A stretch of DNA of 64,000 nt from a virus. Shown one piece after another: positions 767 to 63,560 of the stretch. The stretch lies in UHGV virus genome UHGV-1363143; one strand, given 5' to 3'. Position 1 is the first letter of the stretch, and each line of letters opens with the position of its first letter. The notes under the pieces were generated by a model. It was not told the DNA's origin, searched no databases, and worked only from the letters and a program-made list of their open reading frames with translations. The translations under genes were made by a program, and so were the position numbers.

Positions 767-2585
<1,819 letters not shown>

Positions 2586-8919: not shown

Positions 8920-9212
8920 TACACTAATTCTCTCCCATTTAAACCTTTCTTGATTTTAGTTGATAATCCTAATCTAATAGTTCTACTATCAGGAATAACA
9001 ATCTCCTCTTTAGTTGTAGGGTGTTTTGTTTTCTTTCCTGGCACTGTGCCATATTTAAAAACTGCGAAGTTTTTTATTCTAACTTCTTCTCCTTCTTCAA
9101 CAAGTATCTTTGAGATCTCATTAAATGTATCTTCTATAATGTTGTGCGCATCTTTTTGAGATATTTTTTGATTCTCTGATACTCTTTTAGATAAATCTTT
9201 AATATTCTTCAT
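8919..9212 (-). CDS. HU/IHF-family DNA-binding protein
   Basis: 97 aa; the KKDAHNIIEDTFNEISKIL...FAVFKYGTVPGKKTKHPTTKEEIVIPDSRTIRLGLSTKIKKGL pattern matches the HU fold. Confidence 0.7.
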   Translation of the reverse strand: MKNIKDLSKRVSENQKISQKDAHNIIEDTFNEISKILVEEGEEVRIKNFAVFKYGTVPGKKTKHPTTKEEIVIPDSRTIRLGLSTKIKKGLNGRELV

Positions 9213-9257
9213 TTGTGTTCTATCCTTTCGTAAGTCTATATTATAAATTATGTCAAA

Positions 9258-9300
9258 TAAAAAAAATAAGATACCGTAGGGAACTATTTAAGCTCCCTAC
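9258..9300 (-). terminator. rho-independent terminator
   Basis: Hairpin gtaggga-N11-tccctac (9276-9300) followed on the minus strand by U8 (the A-run at 9261-9268). Confidence 0.6.
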
Positions 9301-9306
9301 TTTTAA

Positions 9307-9639
9307 TTACCTTGGTTTAACTTGCTTATTACTTCTCATTCTTAACATAGTTCTATGACATTTAATACATTCATAAGGTCTACACCCTATATTATAGAAT
9401 TGTTGAACTGCCATACATGAGCTATGTGCTTTACCTCTTTTAGGAGTTTCGCCTGTTGATTTTGCGTAATAATTCTTAATACATTTTATTTTTGTCTCAT
9501 TAGTTAATAGGATAGAATCAAATACTATTGTATCTATTTCAGGTTGTCCATCTACTGAATTAAAATTAAGAATTTCTTCTAAATCTTTAATGTTAATGCC
9601 TTCTATCTGATTTCTTGTTTTTCTTTGAAATATGTTCAT
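9307..9639 (-). CDS. hypothetical protein with Cys/His cluster
   Basis: ORF; CMAVQQFYNIGCRPYECIKCH cluster. Confidence 0.4.
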   Translation of the reverse strand: MNIFQRKTRNQIEGINIKDLEEILNFNSVDGQPEIDTIVFDSILLTNETKIKCIKNYYAKSTGETPKRGKAHSSCMAVQQFYNIGCRPYECIKCHRTMLRMRSNKQVKPR

Positions 9640-9651
9640 AAATTCACCTCA

Positions 9652-10116
9652 TTATAATGCTTGCCAACACTCAGGGCATAGCAAATTTAAAGTATCACCA
9701 TCTACAGTGGCACAACAACTGCAAATGTCTTTTCCACAAGTGCTACATTTAGCAGCATCTTCTTTAAAGGTACTAGCTCCACATCCTTCACAAGTATGAT
9801 CTAATACAAGTGGTTCAGCTACAAATGTGGTTTTAGGCTCAGCTTTTTTTTGAGCTGCTTTTTCTTGTTTCATTTTTTCTTGCCTATTTTTATTAGATAG
9901 TTCATTTATTCTATCTCTATCAACCTTTGGCTTACCAGTAAAAGGATCTATTTCTACTTTAGGTTTTAGTTCCTTTTCTTTAGTACGTATCATGTGATTA
10001 TTATTAAAATCACAGCTGTCGATAGTGATACTTGCATGAACCATATGTTTTGCAATATCACTATAAATATTGCAAATTGGCTTTATATCACATTCTTTGC
10101 AAAGTGACATAAACAT
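9652..10116 (-). CDS. hypothetical Cys-rich protein
   Basis: Several CxxC pairs at both termini with a Lys-rich central region. Confidence 0.4.
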   Translation of the reverse strand: MFMSLCKECDIKPICNIYSDIAKHMVHASITIDSCDFNNNHMIRTKEKELKPKVEIDPFTGKPKVDRDRINELSNKNRQEKMKQEKAAQKKAEPKTTFVAEPLVLDHTCEGCGASTFKEDAAKCSTCGKDICSCCATVDGDTLNLLCPECWQAL

Positions 10117-10122
10117 TCCTCC

Positions 10123-11280
10123 TTAAAGTCGCATATTCATTCTCTTAAGAATATATTCTTTCATGACCATTCTTTCGGCTTCGTAAGGAATTTCTTCAAG
10201 TACCTTTTTGATATCTTTATATTGCTTTAACTTTAATTCATTAATCTGACTATCATATGAATTAACTATCTTTTGCATCTTATACTGTCCATAAGTAAGT
10301 GCATTGGTCTTTATATAATCTTCAATATCACATTTAAGCTCTATTGATAATTCACATAAATCTTTGTTGCCAGGTAGGATTAATATTTTAGAATAGATCC
10401 CCTCAGAAGCCAGTTTGTTAATAGCTTTTTCTGCAGCAGCTATTCCTGGTCCATCTCCATCCATTATGAATACAGGAGTCTTATTCCAATTCTTGATTAC
10501 TTTTACATGTTCATCTGTAAAAGCTGTTCCTAATGTTGCAACTATATTTAATGCATTATACTTATCTGCCATTATTACATCCATTGGTCCTTCAGTTATT
10601 CTTATTTCCTCGAAGCTCTCTATTATATTATGCGAACCATAAAAATAACTAGACTTGTTGAATATCTTACTTGTAGGACTGTTTTTATATTTATCATTTC
10701 TTCCTTCAGGAACTTCAAGCCATCTCTTAGTAAATCCTATTGGATACTTATATCTATTAAGTAATGGGAATACTATCTTTTCTCCTTCAAAACCAATCAT
10801 CCATTTTTTAATATCCTTATCACTTAAACCTCTATTATATAAATAGTTTAATGGTACAGAATATAAATTTTTTATATAACTTTCAGTTTGTATTCTTCTA
10901 AGTTTATATAATTTATCAAATTCTGAACTGGGAATAGGTATCTCATACTTTTCACAAAGATCATAAACTGCTTGTTTCCAATTAACTCCTTCTATCCATT
11001 GATAAAAAGCTATACAATCAGAACCATAATTTTTATGTTCTTTGCTAGATGTATTTTTATCTCCAGAATGACAGACCATACAAGCCCAACTATCAAACTG
11101 ACTGTTTCTATATCCTCTCTTCCAAATTCGGAAAGATGGGTTTTTATCATCATGATTAGGGTGAGGACACTTACCTTGATATATATTGGTGCCTGCTTTA
11201 TGGAGAGCTGTGTATTCTGAAACAAGTTCTACTAAATCTACCTTTTCTTTTATTTCATTAATAAACTCTTGCGGAAACAT
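10123..11280 (-). CDS. DnaG-like DNA primase (zinc finger + TOPRIM)
   Basis: CPHPNHDDKNPSFRIW CHC2-type zinc finger, and a TOPRIM motif EGPMDVIM...IMDGDGPG. Confidence 0.7.
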   Translation of the reverse strand: MFPQEFINEIKEKVDLVELVSEYTALHKAGTNIYQGKCPHPNHDDKNPSFRIWKRGYRNSQFDSWACMVCHSGDKNTSSKEHKNYGSDCIAFYQWIEGVNWKQAVYDLCEKYEIPIPSSEFDKLYKLRRIQTESYIKNLYSVPLNYLYNRGLSDKDIKKWMIGFEGEKIVFPLLNRYKYPIGFTKRWLEVPEGRNDKYKNSPTSKIFNKSSYFYGSHNIIESFEEIRITEGPMDVIMADKYNALNIVATLGTAFTDEHVKVIKNWNKTPVFIMDGDGPGIAAAEKAINKLASEGIYSKILILPGNKDLCELSIELKCDIEDYIKTNALTYGQYKMQKIVNSYDSQINELKLKQYKDIKKVLEEIPYEAERMVMKEYILKRMNMRL

Positions 11281-50074: not shown

Positions 50075-50149
50075 TGGCGGAACTAGTAGGATTCGAACCT
50101 ACAACCTATCGGTTAACAGCCGAGTGCTCCACCTTTGAGCTGTAGTTCC
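50075..50149 (-). tRNA. tRNA-Asn (GUU)
   Basis: Manual cloverleaf with acceptor ggaacta/tagttcc, T-loop GGTTCGAATCC, anticodon loop cuGUUaa, and CCA encoded. Confidence 0.7.
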
Positions 50150-50934
50150 ATAATTCCAGCGTCCGTATGGACCTGGAGATCTCCTTCTATCTTAGATAGA
50201 TGAGCTAATGTAAGCACCACATTTTATAATCCCTTGCATGGATTGGGCAGGCACCATTATTTTTACATGCATGGTTGCATTGACCTAGCTTACTTTTTGT
50301 TCTTTCGGTCTTATTGATTATTACTATCCCACTCGTGAATAGCATATTTGTTTGAAACAATCGCCTGCACAATGCAAGCCCCAGAAAGAGTTTATCTTTC
50401 AAAATTAATGCAAGGTGGGGTGGCGTATCCCACATCTCTAACCATAACAATATATGTAGTATAGACTGCCTGTTTCTACTTCTTGCATTTTTATATCTAA
50501 TTGCTTACTTGAAAAACACGAGCTAATTACATTAGCTACTAAAACTCATAAGCATAAATATACCTTCTTATAAGAGTTCCTAATCTATGTCTAAATAAGA
50601 AGTATATTAGTTTCATAAGGATATAGATTAGGTTTCACCTTACTTTTTATTATTGCTTGAAAAAACCCTAAAAATTACTAAGCAATATATATATTCTTCT
50701 CACTTCCGAAACCAGCACTCCATGTCCTTCGAATATATAGTTTTTTTGTTTCGCTGATCTGGTCCTCTATGCAAAACTTTAAAGGGAAATTTGCTTACCG
50801 CCACAGTTCCTTCCTGCTCGTCCATAAGCTATTAAGTAGATAAATTACTCCTACTTAACTAGTGCGTCTCCAGTGAGCATAGTAAATCAGGCCAATCAAA
50901 TCAGCTAAATACCAGAGGCTTGAGAGGTTCTATT

Positions 50935-51008
50935 TGGAGCTCCTACTCAGAATCGAACTGAGAACAGAAGATTACAAGTCTACCGTTTTACCTTTAAACT
51001 ATAGGAGC
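50935..51008 (-). tRNA. tRNA-Thr (UGU)
   Basis: Cloverleaf with acceptor gctccta/taggagc, anticodon loop cuUGUaa, and CCA encoded. Confidence 0.6.
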
Positions 51009-51164
51009 ATATAATACTTTCGGTGTGCTACAGAAATCTAAGTTTCTGTTAATAGGCAAGGCTGTCTATATCAGGTATTCAGTAATTATGTACACTTTTA
51101 ACTGAACCATACTATATATCCCTACACGCTACTCTTAACTATAAGAACACCGAAAATATTATAA

Positions 51165-51239
51165 TGGTACTCCATGGGGGACTCGAACCCCCGATACACG
51201 ATAGAAAGTCGTGTGGCTTAACCACTTGCCGAATGGAGC
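51165..51239 (-). tRNA. tRNA-Glu (UUC), probable
   Basis: Cloverleaf with T-arm ggggg/ccccc and anticodon stem cacga/tcgtg; the loop cuUUCua has an unusual U37. Confidence 0.5.
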
Positions 51240-51318
51240 ATAATTTGTGCTATCTCTTTTAGCTTGTACTTCGCCAAGGATGATAGCTATCCTTATCTGT
51301 ACAAATTACAGATTTCTC

Positions 51319-51390
51319 TGGTGCAGATTGCTGGAATCGAACCAACCCTTATAATCTTATAGAAAACGCTCTACCTTGAGCTAATCTGCA
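51319..51390 (-). tRNA. tRNA-like element with intact acceptor, D and T arms but no foldable anticodon stem (possible pseudo-tRNA)
   Basis: gcagatt...ggttcgattccagcaatctgcacca carries the right length between the D and T arms, but the segment UUUUCUAUAAGAUUAUA cannot form a 5-bp stem. Confidence 0.3.
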
Positions 51391-52418
51391 TATTATATTT
51401 CCAGAGCTTTCAGATCCTATCTCTGGTACTCAACTTTTGCAGCATTATTGATTCTCTGCTTATCCACATTCTCTTGAATGTATTGAGTTATGCCTGCCTT
51501 GTTTAATGAGTGGCTTATCTCATCTAATAGTACACTACTCTACACCATTGATTATATCAACCTTGCGGGCTGTTCAGGCTGCTACCCCTTATACGCTCTC
51601 CGATATAGAACAATCAAGCTTTTGCGAAGCTATCATGCGCTTCATTCACTTTTCAGTGTGAAGCATTAAGACACTTTCATGCACTACGAGGATGAACTTT
51701 CGCTTTTATATAGAATTAATATCTGTAAATTCTTAAATATTGTTTTATTTCCCAAAACATATAGCTTAAATTCATCATTCATTAAATTTTCAAACTGTAG
51801 ATGTGTCATCCTATCAGCTCGCTTCCCTTTTGAGGAAGTAAATACTGGACACCTACATAGCTTTCACTCAACTAAGTTACTAACTGGTAATAAATCATAC
51901 TCTAGGATACCTCCGTCTCTCAACTTCTAAGGTCCTATTTCATTTTTATTACTGGCCAATGCTCTTGCCTGTTAAACTCGAACTACTAACCTTCTGCTAT
52001 AAATAGTTTATTTCATTAGTTTTGGTGTGTGCTATCTGATTACCAGTCAGAAACTCCTTCAGAGAGTATATCCCCTACTTTCTTACCAGCGTTGCCCATA
52101 AGCGAGCTTTCGCACCTAACTTATAAAACCTTATCCAATAATCGTCTTTATCTCTTCCGCCTACTGAATAACATTTAAATTTATGCAGATTGCTTGAATT
52201 AACCTAATATTTCAAGGCGAGAATTTGTTAAATTCCCTTTACGCACATCACTGTACGCTATTCATGTCAAGCCATGTTTACTTATTTTTTTTATAGAACC
52301 TAGTACAGATTCTTGTATGTAATTCCTACCTCTATTACATACTAGGCTCTTGCCTACCGATGTTTTCCTTATTTAAAACTAAGTACTGAAAAGAAAACTC
52401 ATAACCAAAAATCGTACT

Positions 52419-52494
52419 TGGTGAAGGTAGAAGGGTTTGAACCTTCGGCCCCAGCATTAAAAGTGCTATGCTCTACCAACTGAGCTATACCTTC
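52419..52494 (-). tRNA. tRNA-Lys (UUU)
   Basis: Cloverleaf with D-arm gctcagttggtagagc, anticodon loop cuUUUaa, and CCA encoded. Confidence 0.75.
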
Positions 52495-52501
52495 ATATTA
52501 T

Positions 52502-52578
52502 TGGTAGTGGATATAAGAGTCGAACTTATCACCTTCTGCGTATCAGGCAGATGCTCTAACCAAATGAGCTAATCCACT
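52502..52578 (-). tRNA. tRNA-Ile (GAU)
   Basis: Cloverleaf with anticodon stem tctgc/gcaga and loop cuGAUac. Confidence 0.75.
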
Positions 52579-52584
52579 ATATTA

Positions 52585-52669
52585 TGGTGGGAACTGATGG
52601 AGTCGAACCACCCGAGCTAAAGCAACAGATTTACAGTCTGCCCCGCTACCATCTACGGTATAAATTCCC
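52585..52669 (-). tRNA. tRNA-Tyr (GUA), type II (long variable arm)
   Basis: 85 nt, anticodon loop cuGUAaa, long variable arm. Confidence 0.65.
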
Positions 52670-52763
52670 GTATTGACATTGTTAATTGGCTAAATTATTA
52701 TAATTGTAAATGTACTATACTTACAAAGAACTAGATCAATCTTCGGATTGGTCTTTTTCTTAT

Positions 52764-52850
52764 TGGCAGGGGCTGTAGGATTCGAACCTACGTGGTGTTG
52801 TGCACAATGGTTTTGGAGACCACCGCCCTCGACCTCTAGGCAAAACCCCT
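52764..52850 (-). tRNA. tRNA with Trp anticodon (CCA) and an atypical 15-nt variable arm
   Basis: Acceptor and anticodon arm (gguggu-CUCCAaa-accau) resemble bacterial tRNA-Trp, but the gene is 87 nt with the insert ugugcacaacaccac before the T-arm. Confidence 0.5.
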
Positions 52851-52985
52851 GTAAATCTCCCGATTAGTTTAAAGACATTTATGGGACTGGTCATTAGAGA
52901 GGTCTTATGTATAAATTAAAACGTTATGCATAAATATATTATGTTAACATCTATAAAAAGACTACTGATTTGAAAAACTTTTTTA

Positions 52986-53072
52986 TGGCGGAGAGTCTGG
53001 GACTCGAACCCAGAAGCCATTACTGACCAACAGTTTTCAAGACTGTCTGACTACCAATTATCACAACTCTCC
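52986..53072 (-). tRNA. tRNA-Ser (UGA)
   Basis: 87 nt with acceptor ggagagt/actctcc, anticodon stem acagt/actgt, loop cuUGAaa and a long variable arm. Confidence 0.7.
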
Positions 53073-53090
53073 ATGTTTATAGGAGAAAAC

Positions 53091-53170
53091 GAAATAGGTG
53101 ATAGGAATTGAACCTACACTTACTGCCATCCCTATCTCTAGCTGGCCTTGCTTCATTCTCCTGTTGCAAC
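53091..53170 (-). tRNA. tRNA-like remnant (T-arm-like gtagg-ttcaatt-cctat only)
   Basis: An 80-nt spacer between tRNA-Gln and tRNA-Ser contains a T-arm-like hairpin and a 7-bp aggagaa/ttctcct pairing, but no canonical cloverleaf. Confidence 0.25.
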
Positions 53171-53245
53171 TGGCGGAGGTGGAAGGGATTGAACCTTCGA
53201 ATGATGGAATCAAAATCCATTGCCTTACCACTTGGCGACACCTCT
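53171..53245 (-). tRNA. tRNA-Gln (UUG)
   Basis: D-arm gccaagtggtaaggc (Gln-like), anticodon loop uuUUGau, weak 1-72 pair, and G73. Confidence 0.65.
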
Positions 53246-53446
53246 ATATAAAATGGCAATTTTACCGTTTGCCAAACGTTCTATGGTTTATACAAAAACT
53301 CATATCGTAAAATTTAAACGGGCTTAAGTGCCCTAAATTCTGGCATTTCACCACGGGTATTTAGCAACCCAGGATTTTTATTATTGAATCTAATAAATTA
53401 AGATCCGTTCTAAGCACTGCAAAAAAATCTTAAAAAAATTTCGCTT

Positions 53447-53522
53447 TGGTCGGAGTTACAGGACTCGAACCTGTGATCTCATGGTCCCAAACCATGCACC
53501 TTACCATCTAGGCCAAACTCCG
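53447..53522 (-). tRNA. tRNA-Pro (UGG)
   Basis: cggagtt acceptor, anticodon stem catgg/ccatg, loop uuUGGga. Confidence 0.75.
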
Positions 53523-53531
53523 ATATATAAA

Positions 53532-53623
53532 TGGCGGAGGACACAGGATTCGAACCTGCGGAGGAACTTTCGTCCCTCGAATGCTTAGCAAGCACCTGCC
53601 TTAAACCTCTCGGCCAATCCTCC
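53532..53623 (-). tRNA. tRNA-Ser (GCU)
   Basis: 92 nt with ggaggat acceptor, loop uuGCUaa and a long variable arm. Confidence 0.7.
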
Positions 53624-53713
53624 ATATTAATAGCTCATTTTGGTCAGTTGAGCTAAACTGTAGTCTATAAGACTAAAAAATGAACATTGGAATTTAATAT
53701 TGAATTGAATTAG

Positions 53714-53790
53714 TGGCGACTCACAAGGGGATCGAACCCTCGACCTCTGGCGTGACAGGCCAGCACTCTAACCATCTGAGCTAGTGAGCC
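53714..53790 (-). tRNA. tRNA-Asp (GUC)
   Basis: Anticodon stem ctggc/gccag with loop cuGUCac. Confidence 0.75.
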
Positions 53791-53796
53791 ATATTA

Positions 53797-53885
53797 TGGT
53801 GTCGTGAGAAGGATTCGAACCTCCAACCACCTGAGTCTTGTTAATGGAGCTCCCTCAGTGCGTATACCAATTCCGCCACCACGAC
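53797..53885 (-). tRNA. tRNA-Leu-like gene with an expanded 18-nt anticodon loop
   Basis: Leu-type D-arm gcggaattggtatacgc and good acceptor/T arms, but ctgag-[ggagctccattaacaaga]-ctcag replaces the 7-nt loop. Confidence 0.4.
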
Positions 53886-55988: not shown

Positions 55989-56748
55989 GTTAGGTCCTTT
56001 CTTTTATAGAGATTAGGAGTTGCTAGATGATAAAACTGTTTAAAGCTAATACATAAAACAATGACGAAACAGTTTATGCTATTTTATTACATAAAAAAAA
56101 GATTATAAAAAATATAATCTTAGTAATTCTGTGCTTTTCCCTTGTATTTCGAAAGAATCTTTTATTTTTTTTTATTCACAAGTAGTCTATTATTTTTTAG
56201 CAACATAATATAAAAACGTTAAGCGATTAACAGTACATATTATGGAGCATACACCAAAGATGAATGCAGTTGCCCTATTACTTAAACATGGGAACCTTGC
56301 AAAAGGAGTCTTGCGAAGACTATAAAGATTTCCTACCGAAAGGTAAGGATACAGAAAGCACAGCTGATGCAAAATAGTGCCTCTGGACAGTAAATGGCCA
56401 TTCCCCTAGCACATGGTCGTTCAGGTTGAGACGTGATGACGACGTAATGGTCAGGAGGGAGTTCTGGGTGCATAGATGCACGGGAACTATAAGCAATTAC
56501 ATGGACAGAACCAATGTAGCAAAAGCTTATAGGTGTTTAACACATAACTGCTAGGGTGTAAGATAGTGATACGATTGACATATACGAAGCACAGATTATA
56601 GTTATTCTTTATTGATTGTAAAATTATATAGTATTTTGTATTTTTTTACAATTGGTAAGGAAATAACTATATCCGTTCCACTCCGAGCATGCCGAAGTAC
56701 AGGTGCTTTTCGCTTCTCTATACAAAACGTTCATAATTTTAAACGCTC

Positions 56749-56943
56749 CTACTCATCGACTGTATCATACGCCTTGGTTCTCTCCCAACCGTACTCTTTC
56801 CCACTAACGACTTCTAGTTTTTCTGTTTCAGCTATCTCAAGTATAGAGTTGCTGATCCTTCTCATAATATCTTCTCTCTGAGATTCTGTCTTATCAGCAA
56901 AATCAATCTCAACAAGAAGCTGGTATATTGGTTGTTTTGCCAT
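56749..56943 (-). CDS. hypothetical protein (64 aa)
   Basis: ORF with an RBS. Confidence 0.35.
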   Translation of the reverse strand: MAKQPIYQLLVEIDFADKTESQREDIMRRISNSILEIAETEKLEVVSGKEYGWERTKAYDTVDE

Positions 56944-57073
56944 TTAAAAGCCTCCTACTTTTTTATTTTTAAAGTAGTCTTCTTCTTTAGCTTCTTAAAT
57001 AACTTATCTAATTCTTTATCCTTATTATTCATTATTGCTTGTACCTCTCTTTTTAAAATATTTATTTAGATTG

Positions 57074-57108
57074 TTGACATAATAATAAATTCTTATACAT
57101 ATAATTTT
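57074..57108 (+). promoter_or_regulatory. putative sigma-A-type promoter for the 57137 gene
   Basis: TTGACA at 57074-57079 with TATAAT-like hexamers 17-20 nt downstream. RBS gaaagggg sits before the ATG at 57137. Confidence 0.35.
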
Positions 57109-57136
57109 ACATAACACTATTGAAAGGGGTACGCTT

Positions 57137-57700
57137 ATGTTAAATACAGTTAAAAAGCCATCATTATTATGTAGAGTAGCAATCGGAATTGATAATTTCA
57201 TAGAGAGACTATTTGCAGTAGAAAGTGATCCTGAATTCGAATTATGCATACCAGATAGTATTCTTCATAGAACTGAACTTATATGTGAATACATTAAAAC
57301 TGAAAAAGGATATGATTTCGAAGTTGAAGGATTTCTTATGCTTTTATATTTAGACTTCATAAAGAATTGTATTAAAAGCTACAATCCACGCAAAGTATTT
57401 AAGCAATTAACTAAGGAACACTATCAAGATCAATATTTGACTGCTGTTAACTGTGGTGTCCCTGAGATAATACCTATTATTAAATACAGCAAAACTAATC
57501 TAGTTATCAGTATGGCCGAAGAAGACGTTAGGAAGGGCCAACTAATACTAGATGAATTATATGACTTATATGGATATAGAATTCCTTTCTCCAAACTTCT
57601 TGAAAACCTATGGATAGGATTCATTGAAGATTACAAAACTGGAGAAAATAAAAGAGCTTATTACTCAATAGTAAAAATTCTTAAAGAATGCATTGATTAA
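57137..57700 (+). CDS. hypothetical protein (187 aa)
   Basis: ORF; first gene of the plus-strand module. Confidence 0.4.
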   Translation: MLNTVKKPSLLCRVAIGIDNFIERLFAVESDPEFELCIPDSILHRTELICEYIKTEKGYDFEVEGFLMLLYLDFIKNCIKSYNPRKVFKQLTKEHYQDQYLTAVNCGVPEIIPIIKYSKTNLVISMAEEDVRKGQLILDELYDLYGYRIPFSKLLENLWIGFIEDYKTGENKRAYYSIVKILKECID

Positions 57701-57814: not shown

Positions 57815-58819
57815 ATGTTAATGTCAAAGAATTCTAAGAAGTATGTTTTAGTACTTGACTTGGGTAAAGGTGTAGCGAAAGGTTTAGGCTGTGAAATCAC
57901 AGATAGTATACCTAATCCAGAATCATTAAAAAAATCTATGTTTGAAACAAAGAGTTATGATTTAAATAAAGGTTATACTGAATTACAAGGAAATTCTCAT
58001 AAAGTAGATTTCAATGGTAGCTCAGTAATTTTAGGTGAACAAGGCGTAGATCGTAGCTTTGAAACTAGTAAAACTACTCCACTTCATCAAATGTGTGCTT
58101 ACACATTAATTAGCCAATATCTTGAACCTGATACTAAGGATAATGAAATATATCTTGTTCTTGCTTGTCCTATAACAGTATTAAAGAGTGATAAAGCTAA
58201 GCAAGAATATAAAAACCTTATTAAGGGTGATGGACCTATATCAATAACTGTTAATGATAAATATTATGAATTTGAAATTAAAGATATCTTAATTAAGGCT
58301 GAAAGTTCAGGAGTATTATATTTAATGCCTGAAGAATTTAAAGATAAAAAAATTCTAGTGGTAGACTTTGGTGGTCTTAATATGACTAATACTATCTTTA
58401 CTAATGGAGTATGTGTTAATCCTGAAAATGATAGATTTGCTGAAGAATGGGGATCTGTTGAATTAATCAATAAAGTAAGTAAACACTTAACAGATTATTC
58501 TAAAGGTAATATTGTAGATTTCCAAACTTCTGAAGAAGCTTTAAATAGAGGTCACTTATTAGAATATGGAAAACCTGATTTAGCTTCTACTGAATATATA
58601 GAAAGAGCTAAACAAGAGTTTATAGATGACTCTCTTAAAAAATTAGCTAGACATAATGTAAGAACAAAGAACTTAGATAAAATAATCTATATTGGAGGAA
58701 CTAGTTCTTACTTAAAAGACCAAATAAAAGCGTTACCTAATGGTCAAATCACAGATAATCCTCAATGGTCTTCCGTAGAAGGCTTATTAAAAATCGCTAT
58801 TAAAAAATATATTAAATAA
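57815..58819 (+). CDS. actin-like segregation ATPase (ParM/StbA/Alp family)
   Basis: Three actin-fold phosphate/adenosine motifs spaced as in ParM: LVLDLGKG, ILVVDFGGLNMTNT and IIYIGGTSSYL. Confidence 0.55.
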   Translation: MLMSKNSKKYVLVLDLGKGVAKGLGCEITDSIPNPESLKKSMFETKSYDLNKGYTELQGNSHKVDFNGSSVILGEQGVDRSFETSKTTPLHQMCAYTLISQYLEPDTKDNEIYLVLACPITVLKSDKAKQEYKNLIKGDGPISITVNDKYYEFEIKDILIKAESSGVLYLMPEEFKDKKILVVDFGGLNMTNTIFTNGVCVNPENDRFAEEWGSVELINKVSKHLTDYSKGNIVDFQTSEEALNRGHLLEYGKPDLASTEYIERAKQEFIDDSLKKLARHNVRTKNLDKIIYIGGTSSYLKDQIKALPNGQITDNPQWSSVEGLLKIAIKKYIK

Positions 58820-58821
58820 CC

Positions 58822-59139
58822 ATGTCTAAAAGACCAGGCTCATTTGTTTTCACATTTAGTAAAAAGAACGAAGATGTGAAAAATATCATTGACAATAAAA
58901 AGAAATCCGATAAAAATTTTGTAAAAACTGACTACATGTGTGCTGCAGTTAGATTTTATGAAAAATATAAGGATAACTTTAATGATAACTCTTCTCTTAG
59001 CGAGAATGATGTAATAAGAATAGTCAATGAAATATTAAAAAACAATCAAATTAGTGTTGATAGTGATGTGAATGTAATTAATACTTCACTTAATTTAAAC
59101 ACAGATCACATATCAGATAGCGATTTAGAGGAAGATTAA
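58822..59139 (+). CDS. hypothetical protein (105 aa), possible ParR-like adaptor
   Basis: Small ORF 3 nt after the parM-like gene; no motif recognised. Confidence 0.3.
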   Translation: MSKRPGSFVFTFSKKNEDVKNIIDNKKKSDKNFVKTDYMCAAVRFYEKYKDNFNDNSSLSENDVIRIVNEILKNNQISVDSDVNVINTSLNLNTDHISDSDLEED

Positions 59140-60918: not shown

Positions 60919-61935
60919 GTGAAAGGAGTGAAAACTATGGTAACAAAACAGATGATTAAATTAAGTAAGCAACTACTTTTAGACTTATCTTCTCTTAAAT
61001 ATACTCAAGATGACAGTGTAAACCTTCAACCAGAGTATAGAGATTATAAGAAATGTAGTGCTAATTGTCCGTTTTATAAAAATAAGGATGTTTCATTGTT
61101 TTGTCAAAAAGAGTGTGTATTTGTTTTATCTACTAGCTCATTAATAAAGCCTAGAGAAAACATACTTACTTATACTCAAATAAAACAGTTATTATATTAT
61201 AACTCAACTGTATTTGAAAACAATGGAATAACCATAGAGCTTTCACATAAGGATGTAGCTAAAGCTATTAACTGTTCGGAAAGAACAGCTAGAGATAATA
61301 TTAATGCTTTAGTTAAAGCTGGTTACATTGTAATATCTTCATATAATGATAATAAATACAAGGTGTTTATCAGGGATTATCATAAGTATCATGAAAATGG
61401 TAATCGTGGACATCTTTATTTGAGCAATAAATGTTTTAAAGCTTTAATAAAAATAGATAACATAAATACATTAAGATTAGCTTTAGTTGGATTAGTGCGT
61501 CTTGATGATATGCGTGCATCTAAAGATAAAAATCCTTCTAAAGAATTATCTTATAAAGCTCTAATTAACTTATTGCCTTCAAATATAACTTGCCCTAAGC
61601 AAATAGTTAAAATATTTACTAAGGCTAAAGAATTATTTAAAATGACATTCAAAGACGAATCTATATCTATATCTTTTAATAAGGACATAGATTCATTGGC
61701 ATACGCAAAAAGCCTTAATAAAAATAATAAGAAGGCATTATCTAAATTCCTTAAAAGATTTGAATTAACTGTAACTAATAAGGATAAAGAAGATCTTCTT
61801 CAAATGTCTATCCAATATAATATTCATATTGTAACAAAGGCGTTTAATTATATAAAGGATAAAAATCCTGATGAGTTAGGATCATATTTAAGAACAGTTA
61901 TAAGAAATAACTTCAATTCTTTAATTTCTTGTTAA
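60919..61935 (+). CDS. HTH-containing protein, candidate replication or regulatory protein
   Basis: HTH-like segment VAKAINCSERTARDNINALVKAGYIVI. Starts 60 bp after the iterons. Confidence 0.35.
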   Translation: MKGVKTMVTKQMIKLSKQLLLDLSSLKYTQDDSVNLQPEYRDYKKCSANCPFYKNKDVSLFCQKECVFVLSTSSLIKPRENILTYTQIKQLLYYNSTVFENNGITIELSHKDVAKAINCSERTARDNINALVKAGYIVISSYNDNKYKVFIRDYHKYHENGNRGHLYLSNKCFKALIKIDNINTLRLALVGLVRLDDMRASKDKNPSKELSYKALINLLPSNITCPKQIVKIFTKAKELFKMTFKDESISISFNKDIDSLAYAKSLNKNNKKALSKFLKRFELTVTNKDKEDLLQMSIQYNIHIVTKAFNYIKDKNPDELGSYLRTVIRNNFNSLISC

Positions 61936-62744: not shown

Positions 62745-63560
62745 ATGTTTATGCCTAAAACTATAGCTATAGGTACCTTTAAAGGTGGAGTTGGAAAAAC
62801 AATGACTACTTTTAATTTAGCAGGTATATTAGCTGAGAGAAATTACAAAGTATTGTGTATAGATGTAGATCCTCAAGGAAATCTAACAAGTAATCTTGGA
62901 ATTAATAGAGCTAATAATGGCTTAGTTGGTGTTGAAGCTATATTTAGTGAAAACTCTACAGTTAATCTTAACGATATAATAATAAAAAGTCCAATAGAGC
63001 AACTACCAACATTAGATCTTTTACCTAGCACAGTTTTGCTTCATAAATCTGAATTATTTATGGCATTAGCTCCTGCTAGAGAACTAAAGTTAAAGTATTT
63101 CATGATGGATAATAAAGAGGTTCTTGATAACTACGATTATATTTTAATAGATACTAATCCTAGTATGGGATATCTTAATCAAAATGCATTTGTAGTTGCA
63201 GATAAAATTATTATGCCAGCAACTGCAGATTTATCAGATTTAGATGGAATACATCTATTCTGTGCATTATGGGATGATTTAAGAGAAAAATTACGTATAG
63301 ACGATAATATAGCTGCTGTAGTTACTACTAAGAATGACAAAAGAGTTTCTCTTGATAGAAGTTTTATTGAACATATTAAAACTACAGAAGATAATGAAGA
63401 TATAGCAGAATTATTAGTAGATACAATAATTCCTGTCAATGTTACTCTTAAGGAAGCAGCAATGAGCTGTCAACCTATTAATCTTTATAATAAGAATTGT
63501 ATTGGTTATCAAGCTTATAAAAAATTGGTAGATGAGCTATTCGAAAGAGGTGTATTCTAA
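62745..63560 (+). CDS. parA: ParA/Soj-family partition ATPase
   Basis: Deviant Walker A KGGVGKT (IAIGTFKGGVGKTMTT) and the typical ParA length and downstream motifs. Confidence 0.85.
   Translation: MFMPKTIAIGTFKGGVGKTMTTFNLAGILAERNYKVLCIDVDPQGNLTSNLGINRANNGLVGVEAIFSENSTVNLNDIIIKSPIEQLPTLDLLPSTVLLHKSELFMALAPARELKLKYFMMDNKEVLDNYDYILIDTNPSMGYLNQNAFVVADKIIMPATADLSDLDGIHLFCALWDDLREKLRIDDNIAAVVTTKNDKRVSLDRSFIEHIKTTEDNEDIAELLVDTIIPVNVTLKEAAMSCQPINLYNKNCIGYQAYKKLVDELFERGVF

Follow-up and report, generated by a model that had tools for sequence, protein, structure and literature searches.

What a stretch without genes is doing between the lysis genes and the plasmid-like genes of a virus is the question raised by genome UHGV-1363143, of which we analyzed 64,000 nucleotides (nt), called the window below. 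The original prediction described an island there of about 370 bp, GC-rich and free of open reading frames (ORFs), which might be a structured regulatory RNA such as a replication-control antisense RNA, a riboswitch or a retron-like RNA. Comparative sequence analysis indicates that the island is one copy of a previously undescribed, intricately folded RNA-like element of about 450 nt that belongs to no family in Rfam 15 and of which no description was found in the literature searched. We favor the reading, with a probability of about 0.55, that the element is the cis-acting core of a replicon that needs no replication initiator protein (Rep), most likely as a pre-primer or origin RNA. A structured motif associated with plasmid replication is already known as a concept; what is new is the element itself.

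How far does the element extend, and could it encode a protein? The island is indeed GC-rich (39-46% GC over positions 56200-56600, compared with 22-30% in the flanks), and both the GC skew (locally +0.2) and the AT skew are positive there. The conserved unit is larger than predicted, however. A family profile in nhmmer places it at 56240-56694 on the plus strand (E = 9e-85), with no second copy within the 64-kb window, and a core covariance model matches inside it at 56453-56580 (114.7 bits). These boundaries agree with a fall in identity at the flanks when the window is compared with viral contig L098, where less-conserved spacers border the element at about 56100-56200 and 56700-56800. The ORFs that overlap it are short (37-60 amino acids (aa), on either strand) and are not conserved: in 24 homologues, the longest run without a stop codon ranges from 38 to 111 codons and its position is inconsistent.

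The evidence that the element folds comes from the comparison of its copies. Folding of the single sequence gives modest z-scores (-2.3 for the plus strand and -2.7 for the minus strand), which are weak alone, and it is the covariation that puts the signal above chance. From a main alignment of 24 diverse copies, RNAalifold derived a consensus of 76 pairs in 12 helices for the 3' two-thirds; overall, the fold has at least 15 helices. Standard pairs fill 95.8% of the paired cells, compared with 86.3 ± 0.5% when the partners are shuffled and 39-42% when they are slid by one to three columns. Compensatory double changes occur at 34 of the 76 pairs, whereas shuffles give 19 ± 2.5 and none of 500 reaches 34; changes on both sides were observed in 171 cells versus 49. 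The predicted pairs include 237 G·U combinations and only 6 A·C, which identifies the plus strand as the folding strand.

The 5' third exists as two variants, type A and type B. For 20 type-A copies, which include the one in the window, RNAalifold predicts 42 pairs, 28 of them compensated, while the type-B 5' domain has a different covarying hairpin. Several unpaired stretches are invariant, namely GGGAGUUCURGG, CGGGAAC, GGAUAGAACC, GAAAGCU, GUAAC and AGGGUG; GNRA loops are found in the 5' domain and a cUUCGg-like hairpin in 50 of 88 3' tails. These results bear out the prediction of a structured non-coding element and show it to be strand-specific, and the three hairpins cited in its favor are all present, each inside a conserved covarying helix.

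The helices of the window copy, all on the plus strand, begin with the first type-A 5' hairpin, Pa (GCATACA / TGAATGC, 56247-56267), which has compensatory variants at all seven pairs among the 20 copies. Helices Pc (CCTT-GCAA-AAGG) and Pe (AGTCT-TGCGA-AGACT) occupy 56295-56321. Pe, which corresponds to the predicted hairpin agtcttgcgaagact (56307-56321, GCGA loop), covaries (GUCUU/AAGAC versus CACUC/AGUGU) and keeps a GCGA or GCAA loop in 19 of the 20 copies. The predicted ccgaaagg hairpin (56336-56343, GAAA loop) belongs to Pf (TACC-GAAA-GGTA, 56334-56345), all four pairs of which are compensated. Helices P1 (56358-61/56377-80), P2 (56382-86/56421-25) and P3 (56397-402/56413-18) together span 56358-56425 and have both-side changes at 11 of 15 pairs. 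P4 (TGAC / GTCA, 56437-56453) encloses a conserved loop, ACGUAAWG, and is paired in 100% of the cells; its pair 308:324 is split between UA (13 copies) and CG (11 copies). A long-range pairing of 56269-72 with 56437-40 was not adopted because it conflicts with the better-supported P4.

The 3' half is enclosed by a long-range helix, P5, which closes the 3' domain. Its 5' strand (GGGAGU, 56457-56462) is within the invariant GGGAGUUCURGG and its 3' strand (ACUCCG) is at 56680-56685; the support for P5 is weaker than for the other helices because 95% of the cells are paired but the variation is one-sided. P6 (56463-56485) is flanked by the invariant UCU...GGA and CGGGAAC and has the remaining predicted hairpin, gtgcatagatgcac (56468-56481), at its apex. 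It is 100% paired, with compensatory changes at four of its eight pairs (variants GUGCA, AGCAU, AUCG, AUAU and AUAC). P7 (56487-93/56526-32), P8 (56497-504/56511-19) and P9 (56533-35/56541-43), which fill 56487-56543, have compensatory changes even between the window and L098, at 56490/56529 and 56498/56518. Support for P10 (56555-56576) is moderate, with 96% of the cells paired and mainly G-C to G-U changes. The long hairpin P11-P12 (56601-56670) has 20 pairs, six compensated pairs in P12 and an A/T-rich variable apex; its 3' arm, UAAGGRAAUAAC, is almost invariant, and the G·U wobbles of the hairpin are valid on the plus strand alone. A 3' tail (56686-56745) is possible but uncertain: the plasmid tails include an A-rich-(G)TCAAG-T-rich motif as well as a cUUCGg hairpin, features to which the window is only loosely similar, and the window and L098 are 71% identical there.

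Does the element belong to a known class of RNA? The Rfam scan that had been proposed as a check, run on the window and 13 plasmid loci with all 4,227 families, returned no match at the element, either at the gathering scores or permissively at E <= 10. Of the prediction of a structured regulatory RNA near a replicon, the structure holds up and a link to a replicon is the best-supported function, but the RNA classes suggested for it are not supported. With regard to an antisense RNA that controls replication, nothing is encoded opposite the element, a strong minus-strand promoter-like site (56622-56595) is not conserved and it is the plus strand that folds. With regard to a riboswitch, there is no Rfam match, and the downstream genes encode small DNA-binding proteins of five unrelated families and do not form a metabolic regulon. 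As for a retron-like RNA, no reverse-transcriptase family is among the family matches returned for the neighbors in the window, nor among those for the ORFs encoded by the six complete plasmids described below. The minus-strand site just mentioned and a plus-strand one at 56575-56602 are sigma-70-like promoter matches (11/12 each) in the 3' part of the element; together with a terminator-like CCGAAAGG hairpin on the minus strand they were set aside because they are not conserved in the homologues, and they are probably chance matches in A/T-rich DNA.

Where else is the element found? Two different copies had no blastn match in 50,697 phage records, and the blastn matches that were obtained are in unannotated DNA on small Clostridium and Paraclostridium plasmids. 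A scan of three large collections with the motif GGGAGTTCTRGG-N8-16-CGGGAAC, followed by a profile filter, gave 22 true loci in species-representative genomes, one in IMG/VR and at least 57 in metagenomes. With plasmid records included, at least 89 loci have the element, with nhmmer E-values down to 1e-141. The Clostridium hosts are C. perfringens, C. chauvoei, C. gasigenes, C. tyrobutyricum, C. beijerinckii, C. gallinarum, C. cibarium, C. ihumii and C. culturomicium; the others are Paraclostridium/Paeniclostridium, Romboutsia, Terrisporobacter and Anaerovoracaceae. With the window and L098 set aside, nearly all copies are on small plasmids or small contigs of Clostridium or Peptostreptococcaceae.

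The sizes of the contigs display a simple pattern. All 22 of the species-representative hits, from isolates or metagenome-assembled genomes (MAGs), are on contigs of at most 14.6 kb, and the assembly coverage given in several contig names is very high (685x, 943x and 2429x). The three exceptions to the small-contig pattern are the window, L098 and metagenomic contig L134. L098, a 241-kb IMG/VR contig, is syntenic with the window and its copy is 94% identical to that of the window. L134 (11.7 kb), and likewise L197, has a copy without the long 3' hairpin (823-1238 on L134; core 140 bits) on a contig with histidine-biosynthesis genes.

Different copies also occur together. For example, one MAG, Clostridium sp. 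S30M_St_27, has a type-A and a type-B copy on separate contigs (L022 and L034), and four metagenomic contigs (L187, L218, L128 and L204) each have two non-identical copies 3.5-4.7 kb apart. These cases imply that the variants can coexist or form cointegrates. Circular assembly as the source of repeated copies holds for just two contigs, L174 and L191, where the repeats are near-identical and define circular units of 5.7 and 6.2 kb; the only genes inside these units encode Mob and small proteins of the kinds described below.

If the element is part of a replicon, what else do its carriers have in common? Six complete circular carriers (3.6, 3.9, 7.4, 9.4, 10.3 and 14.8 kb) were compared, and none of their 42 ORFs of at least 70 aa matched a replication-initiator family in Pfam or NCBIfam. 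The ORFs encode resolvases, Mob, helix-turn-helix (HTH) and ribbon-helix-helix (RHH) proteins, toxin-antitoxin systems and cargo, including tetA/B(P) and bacteriocin-related genes; in the two smallest plasmids no protein exceeds 212 aa, and these are of the RHH, coiled-coil or toxin-antitoxin type. Pairwise blastn comparisons revealed that the element is the sole stretch common to all six plasmids. In five of the six, the element-sense strand has more G than C around the entire circle, a composition like that of a leading strand. The literature describes the C. chauvoei plasmid as having "only 4 very short ORF" (PMC5465433), no Rep could be assigned to pCSTC1 (PMC6399922) and the replicon of pNF1 is undescribed (PMC5894183). 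An RNA-based replicon should not be ascribed to pNF2 or pBCNF5603: it is pNF1 that has the element, and pBCNF5603 replicates by means of a Rep protein.

The layout of the plasmid loci is also regular. A terminator-like hairpin and a T-run are directly upstream of the plasmid copies, often after a conserved AAAGAAGAA-ATTTCAAG motif, and the next downstream gene is on the strand of the element in 81 of 81 loci, usually at a distance of 80-280 nt. The downstream proteins fall into five families: HTH plus RHH, HTH plus coiled coil, an RNase H1 hybrid-binding domain (HBD) plus RHH, RHH, and a 108-aa protein of unknown type. The HBD (PF01693, E = 2e-11) is present in the downstream protein at 11 loci. 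Mob_Pre relaxases are encoded at 22 loci, while four of the six complete plasmids have no detected relaxase.

Two additional modules are associated with some of these loci. One is a folded module of about 130 nt (AACTTCGGTT...AACCGAAG) that precedes the terminator-like hairpin, which has a conserved GGTA...TACC apex. It is present in L001 (2722-2946), L102, L103, L105 and L227, where it precedes either the focal element or the pSM101A-type region described below, and it is not found in the window; it could be a small RNA or a copy-control attenuator. The other is an optional conserved module, GGTGAATGC-hairpin-CAGAGGG-hairpin, that sometimes follows GTAGACCAACTGGA.... In many plasmids it separates the small DNA-binding gene from the element, at a distance of about 90-200 nt from the latter (for example, L001 3560-3720, L222 and L042), and it is absent from the window and L098. 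On L001, the C. chauvoei plasmid, there is also a sub-threshold match to the ohsC antitoxin small RNA (1578-1645, plus strand; 35.7 bits, gathering score 50) directly after a 'plasmid stabilization' ORF.

A search by tblastn with the HBD-RHH protein led to about 25 further small Clostridium plasmids. We inspected pSM101A, pCPCPI75-1_4 and a C. septicum plasmid of 5.3 kb. No Rep is annotated on any of these three, and upstream of the HBD gene all of them have a gene-free gap of 0.9-1.1 kb. In pSM101A (L227) the gap, at 9076-10200, starts with the same upstream module and terminator-like hairpin as in the focal-element plasmids and continues with a different GC-rich folded region that ends in a long hairpin with an A/T-rich loop. 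Distant homology between the element and the regions of these three plasmids was rejected by nhmmer --max and the covariance model. The pSM101A gap contains a match to EGFOA (RF02955; L227 9763-9881, 40.6 bits, gathering score 37.7), which has been described only as a putative small RNA in unusually large gene-free intergenic regions and which oligomerizes in vitro, with no known function. The EGFOA region resembles the focal element in being in a gene-free, GC-enriched gap behind the same module and hairpin and before an RNase H1-HBD/RHH gene. The EGFOA RNA differs in being about 108 nt long; its Rfam model has no match in the window, and the focal core model does not link the two. Structured RNAs without homology to one another can thus occupy the same replicon slot. 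EGFOA and the focal element appear to be two such occupants, which hints that EGFOA regions are also replicon cores.

How can these observations be explained? A constant, host-spanning element is the only feature shared by Rep-less plasmids whose proteins vary, and the most economical explanation would be a Rep-independent origin that starts replication through conserved machinery of the host. On the evidence, the element is more likely to be itself the determinant of the origin or primer than to regulate an adjacent protein-based replicon. An RNA mechanism is favored because the upstream terminator-like hairpin insulates the plasmid copies (though not the window copy), because the orientation relative to the downstream genes is fixed, because the non-template strand is locally G-rich, which favors an R-loop, and because of the RNA-typical tetraloops and the repeated pairing with a domain that binds RNA-DNA hybrids. 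We infer from these features that the element is transcribed, has a role in replication and primes it as RNA.

In the mechanism that we propose, transcription of the plus strand would yield an RNA of about 450 nt with an intricate fold that engages the host RNA polymerase, an RNase H and DNA polymerase I, as ColE1 RNA II or ARRPOF would. An RNA-DNA hybrid would be formed and processed and would prime the leading strand in the direction of transcription. Copy number and incompatibility would be set by the variable 5' domain (types A and B) and by the upstream terminator-like hairpin of the plasmids. An accessory regulatory role would fall to the small RHH/HTH proteins encoded downstream in the same orientation, a number of which contain the HBD. 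Presumably the phage-plasmid acquired the element, which would serve as its origin, or as one of several, beside the partition genes.

Several points weigh against a Rep-independent RNA origin. 'No Rep' means that profile matches are absent, and one of the small variable DNA-binding proteins could be an unrecognized initiator. A few larger contigs encode large proteins that are possibly Reps (clusters C10 and C17), and a Rep census of 139 larger proteins from all of the loci, read for the top 25 of 112 families, was uninformative either way. The window encodes a weak Rep/DnaD-like candidate of its own, with which the phage-plasmid could perhaps do without the element; in addition, the window copy has neither the co-oriented small DNA-binding gene nor the upstream hairpin of the plasmid copies, and neither inspection by eye nor a scan found a convincing conserved plus-strand promoter upstream of it. 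No antisense regulator was identified, nor was a conserved promoter or terminator on the minus strand. The copy beside the histidine genes on L134 may be chromosomal, integrated or an assembly chimera. Finally, the folding of an RNA and that of single-stranded DNA (ssDNA) are indistinguishable from sequence.

This last point leads to the first of three roles that we rank below that of an RNA origin. The element may work as ssDNA, in the manner of a single-strand origin (sso) or single-strand initiation (ssi) signal at which a primosome or RNA polymerase enters and primes the complementary strand, either in the wake of rolling-circle replication or once the transferred strand has entered by conjugation. 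We consider this unlikely, even though it would account for folding that is strand-specific and for an orientation that is fixed relative to all genes. It would also agree with the plasmid-wide excess of G over C, if the element strand spends time single-stranded, and with the Mob_Pre relaxases, which are typical of rolling-circle plasmids. Weinberg et al. stated that, for plasmid motifs of such a kind, ssDNA is a possibility that bioinformatics does not allow to be told from RNA (PMC5737381). The signals ssoA, ssoU, ssoT and ssoW and the Frpo-type ssDNA promoters are, like the element, non-coding, strongly folded, dependent on strand and orientation and conserved across plasmids of different hosts. 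However, the matches returned for the complete carriers include no rolling-circle Rep (Rep_1, Rep_2 or Rep_trans), no double-strand origin was found on them, and most of them have no detected relaxase; the element would therefore still be the primary origin or be situated beside one. The ssoA hallmark CS-6 (TAGCGT/A, that is TAGCGW) is in just two of the 24 copies, and the element forms a multi-helix junction and not one long imperfect hairpin. Its many helices, invariant junction nucleotides and GNRA and cUUCGg loops are more like an RNA with a tertiary fold, and the plus-strand terminator-like hairpin upstream and the co-oriented genes downstream provide a transcriptional context.

Such an RNA need not act in replication. 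The element might be a trans-acting 'ornate' RNA carried as cargo by mobile elements, as a scaffold, a cage or an anti-defense agent, like GOLLD, ROOL, OLE, raiA and EGFOA, while the small plasmids replicate by other, unrecognized means. This proposal, which we place next in order and also regard as improbable, draws on the resemblance to these RNAs in size (several hundred nt), in the number of covarying helices, in invariant unpaired nucleotides, in association with mobile elements and in unexplained function. Furthermore, GOLLD and skipping-rope RNAs are encoded 5 kb away, which implies that the genome collects such RNAs, and it is the oligomerizing EGFOA that is at the equivalent place in pSM101A. 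Yet no model of GOLLD, ROOL, OLE or raiA matches at the element. GOLLD-type and ROOL-type RNAs are common in chromosomal prophages, whereas copies of the element were found only on plasmids, on small contigs that look like plasmids and on two contigs of phages; with L134 as a possible and ambiguous exception, none was found on a long chromosomal contig. The element is also the sole DNA common to Rep-less plasmids as small as 3.6 kb, it is linked to an HBD protein and its window copy coincides with a switch in GC skew. The invariable strand and short distance of the downstream gene and the terminator-like hairpin before the element would agree with a third role, that of a long cis-regulatory 5' leader (riboswitch, attenuator or protein-binding) of the small DNA-binding gene. 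This is quite improbable, since the RNA is constant while the downstream proteins belong to at least five unrelated families and no riboswitch family matches; moreover, an A/T-rich promoter-like spacer, often with the further conserved module, separates the element from the gene, and in the window and in L098 the copy lacks a gene of this kind and is followed by a 64-aa ORF on the opposite strand. A degenerate coding remnant, which the original prediction had named as the outcome that would undo it, or a chance GC-rich patch might be suggested by the short ORFs on both strands and the z-score of only about -2.3. We give this practically no credence because no ORF is conserved, because the substitutions compensate pairs and are not codon-periodic and because at least 89 loci share the element; the covariation analysis refutes it.

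How does the proposed RNA origin compare with known replication systems? Like ColE1/pMB1 RNA II (theta class B, enterobacterial), the element would belong to a replicon without a plasmid-encoded initiator, as judged from the profile scans of the six plasmids, and would be a long structured sense RNA (about 450-550 nt) on the strand co-oriented with replication. The purine-rich, R-loop-prone composition is similar, as are the small accessory genes directly downstream (compare rom), and the conserved 3' core with a variable 5' domain parallels the incompatibility determinants of the ColE1 type. The only hint, an indirect one, of possible ColE1-like processing by RNase H and DNA polymerase I is the HBD protein beside the element at 11 loci. 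However, the element has no homology in sequence or structure to RNA II or RNA I and no Rfam match to them even at E <= 10; its hosts are Firmicutes, no equivalent of the antisense RNA I was identified, its fold is much more complex and includes junction nucleotides that do not vary, and its accessory proteins are RHH/HTH, at times with the HBD, and not Rom.

The ARRPOF motif of Fusobacterium nucleatum pKH9 is within 1 kb of gene-free DNA that suffices for replication in the absence of rep, and ARRPOF, GEBRO and PAGEV are, like the element, moderately long structured plasmid motifs with a proposed replication role as RNA or ssDNA (PMC5737381). They differ in that their covariance models match neither the window nor 10 plasmid loci, even at E <= 10; they are from other taxa, and the element is larger (about 450 nt compared with 223-349 nt) and is also in a phage-plasmid. 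Membership in the ColE1 RNA II or ARRPOF families is thus excluded by the lack of model matches, and both would be functional analogues.

A bolder version combines several of these proposals: an RNA-only origin would serve a whole class of plasmids in Firmicutes and one or more lineages of large Clostridium phage-plasmids. In it, an ornate RNA of about 450 nt, conserved in the manner of a ribozyme, would organize the R-loop and the maturation of the primer without an initiator protein encoded by the element; the RNA might even process itself, interchangeable 5' domains would set incompatibility, and in sister plasmids the slot would be taken by RNAs without homology to it, for example the region that contains EGFOA. 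We regard this joint reading as tentative and more doubtful than the origin role alone. If it is true, 'orphan' RNAs of the EGFOA type would gain a function and Gram-positive bacteria a new mode of replication. There is a substantial chance that the mode is new for Firmicutes.

If the element is an origin, it would define the replicon of many 'cryptic' or untypable plasmids of Clostridium and Peptostreptococcaceae, among them plasmids for tetracycline resistance and bacteriocins in C. perfringens and P. sordellii, as well as the plasmid that is universal in C. chauvoei. To our knowledge, it would be the first Rep-protein-independent, RNA-centered replicon described in Firmicutes. It would also provide a compact new origin for clostridial shuttle vectors and a marker for typing plasmids and for spotting plasmid contigs in metagenomes, and a large phage-plasmid that carries tRNAs and GOLLD would have borrowed the origin module of small plasmids. 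Apart from its function, a large and well-supported class of structured RNA is missing from Rfam, and replication is suggested as a testable function for other gene-free regions with orphan motifs, such as EGFOA.

The surroundings of the element in the window have the divergent arrangement that was predicted, with minus-strand genes to the left (the endolysin and two small ORFs) and plus-strand genes to the right. The 64-aa ORF on the minus strand is the next feature after the element, and the first plus-strand ORF starts 440 nt from it. The plus-strand genes encode, in order, a functionally uncharacterized protein of 187 aa, the ParM/Alp-type ATPase of a partition operon and its 105-aa partner (57815-59139, by family match; 1.1 kb from the element), a 441-aa protein of unknown function, the DnaD/replication-initiator-like protein (60919-61935, a weak family match) and a ParA-like ATPase (62745-63560, by family match). 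With two partition systems and a weak DnaD/Rep-like protein, the genome is phage-plasmid-like. Sequence searches of the PDB with the 187-aa and 441-aa proteins found nothing, and the 441-aa protein is unrelated to the 481-aa divergent neighbor (C17) of the element in some plasmids.

The cumulative GC skew of the window falls steadily for 56 kb, has a plateau at 56.0-57.5 kb, on which the element is located, with its global minimum at 57117, and then rises; this compositional switch (56001-57500) coincides with the change from minus-strand to plus-strand genes. A skew minimum is the signature expected of a bidirectional origin, and here it is confounded with gene orientation.

Other RNAs are encoded on the minus strand to the left of the lysis genes, 2.4-6 kb from the element. 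They are the GOLLD RNA (51412-51857, 171.8 bits), the skipping-rope RNA (50407-50489, 58.2 bits) and 14 tRNA genes (50075-53885), among which is an odd call, a 'tRNA-Tyr' with the anticodon ATA at 51319-51389.

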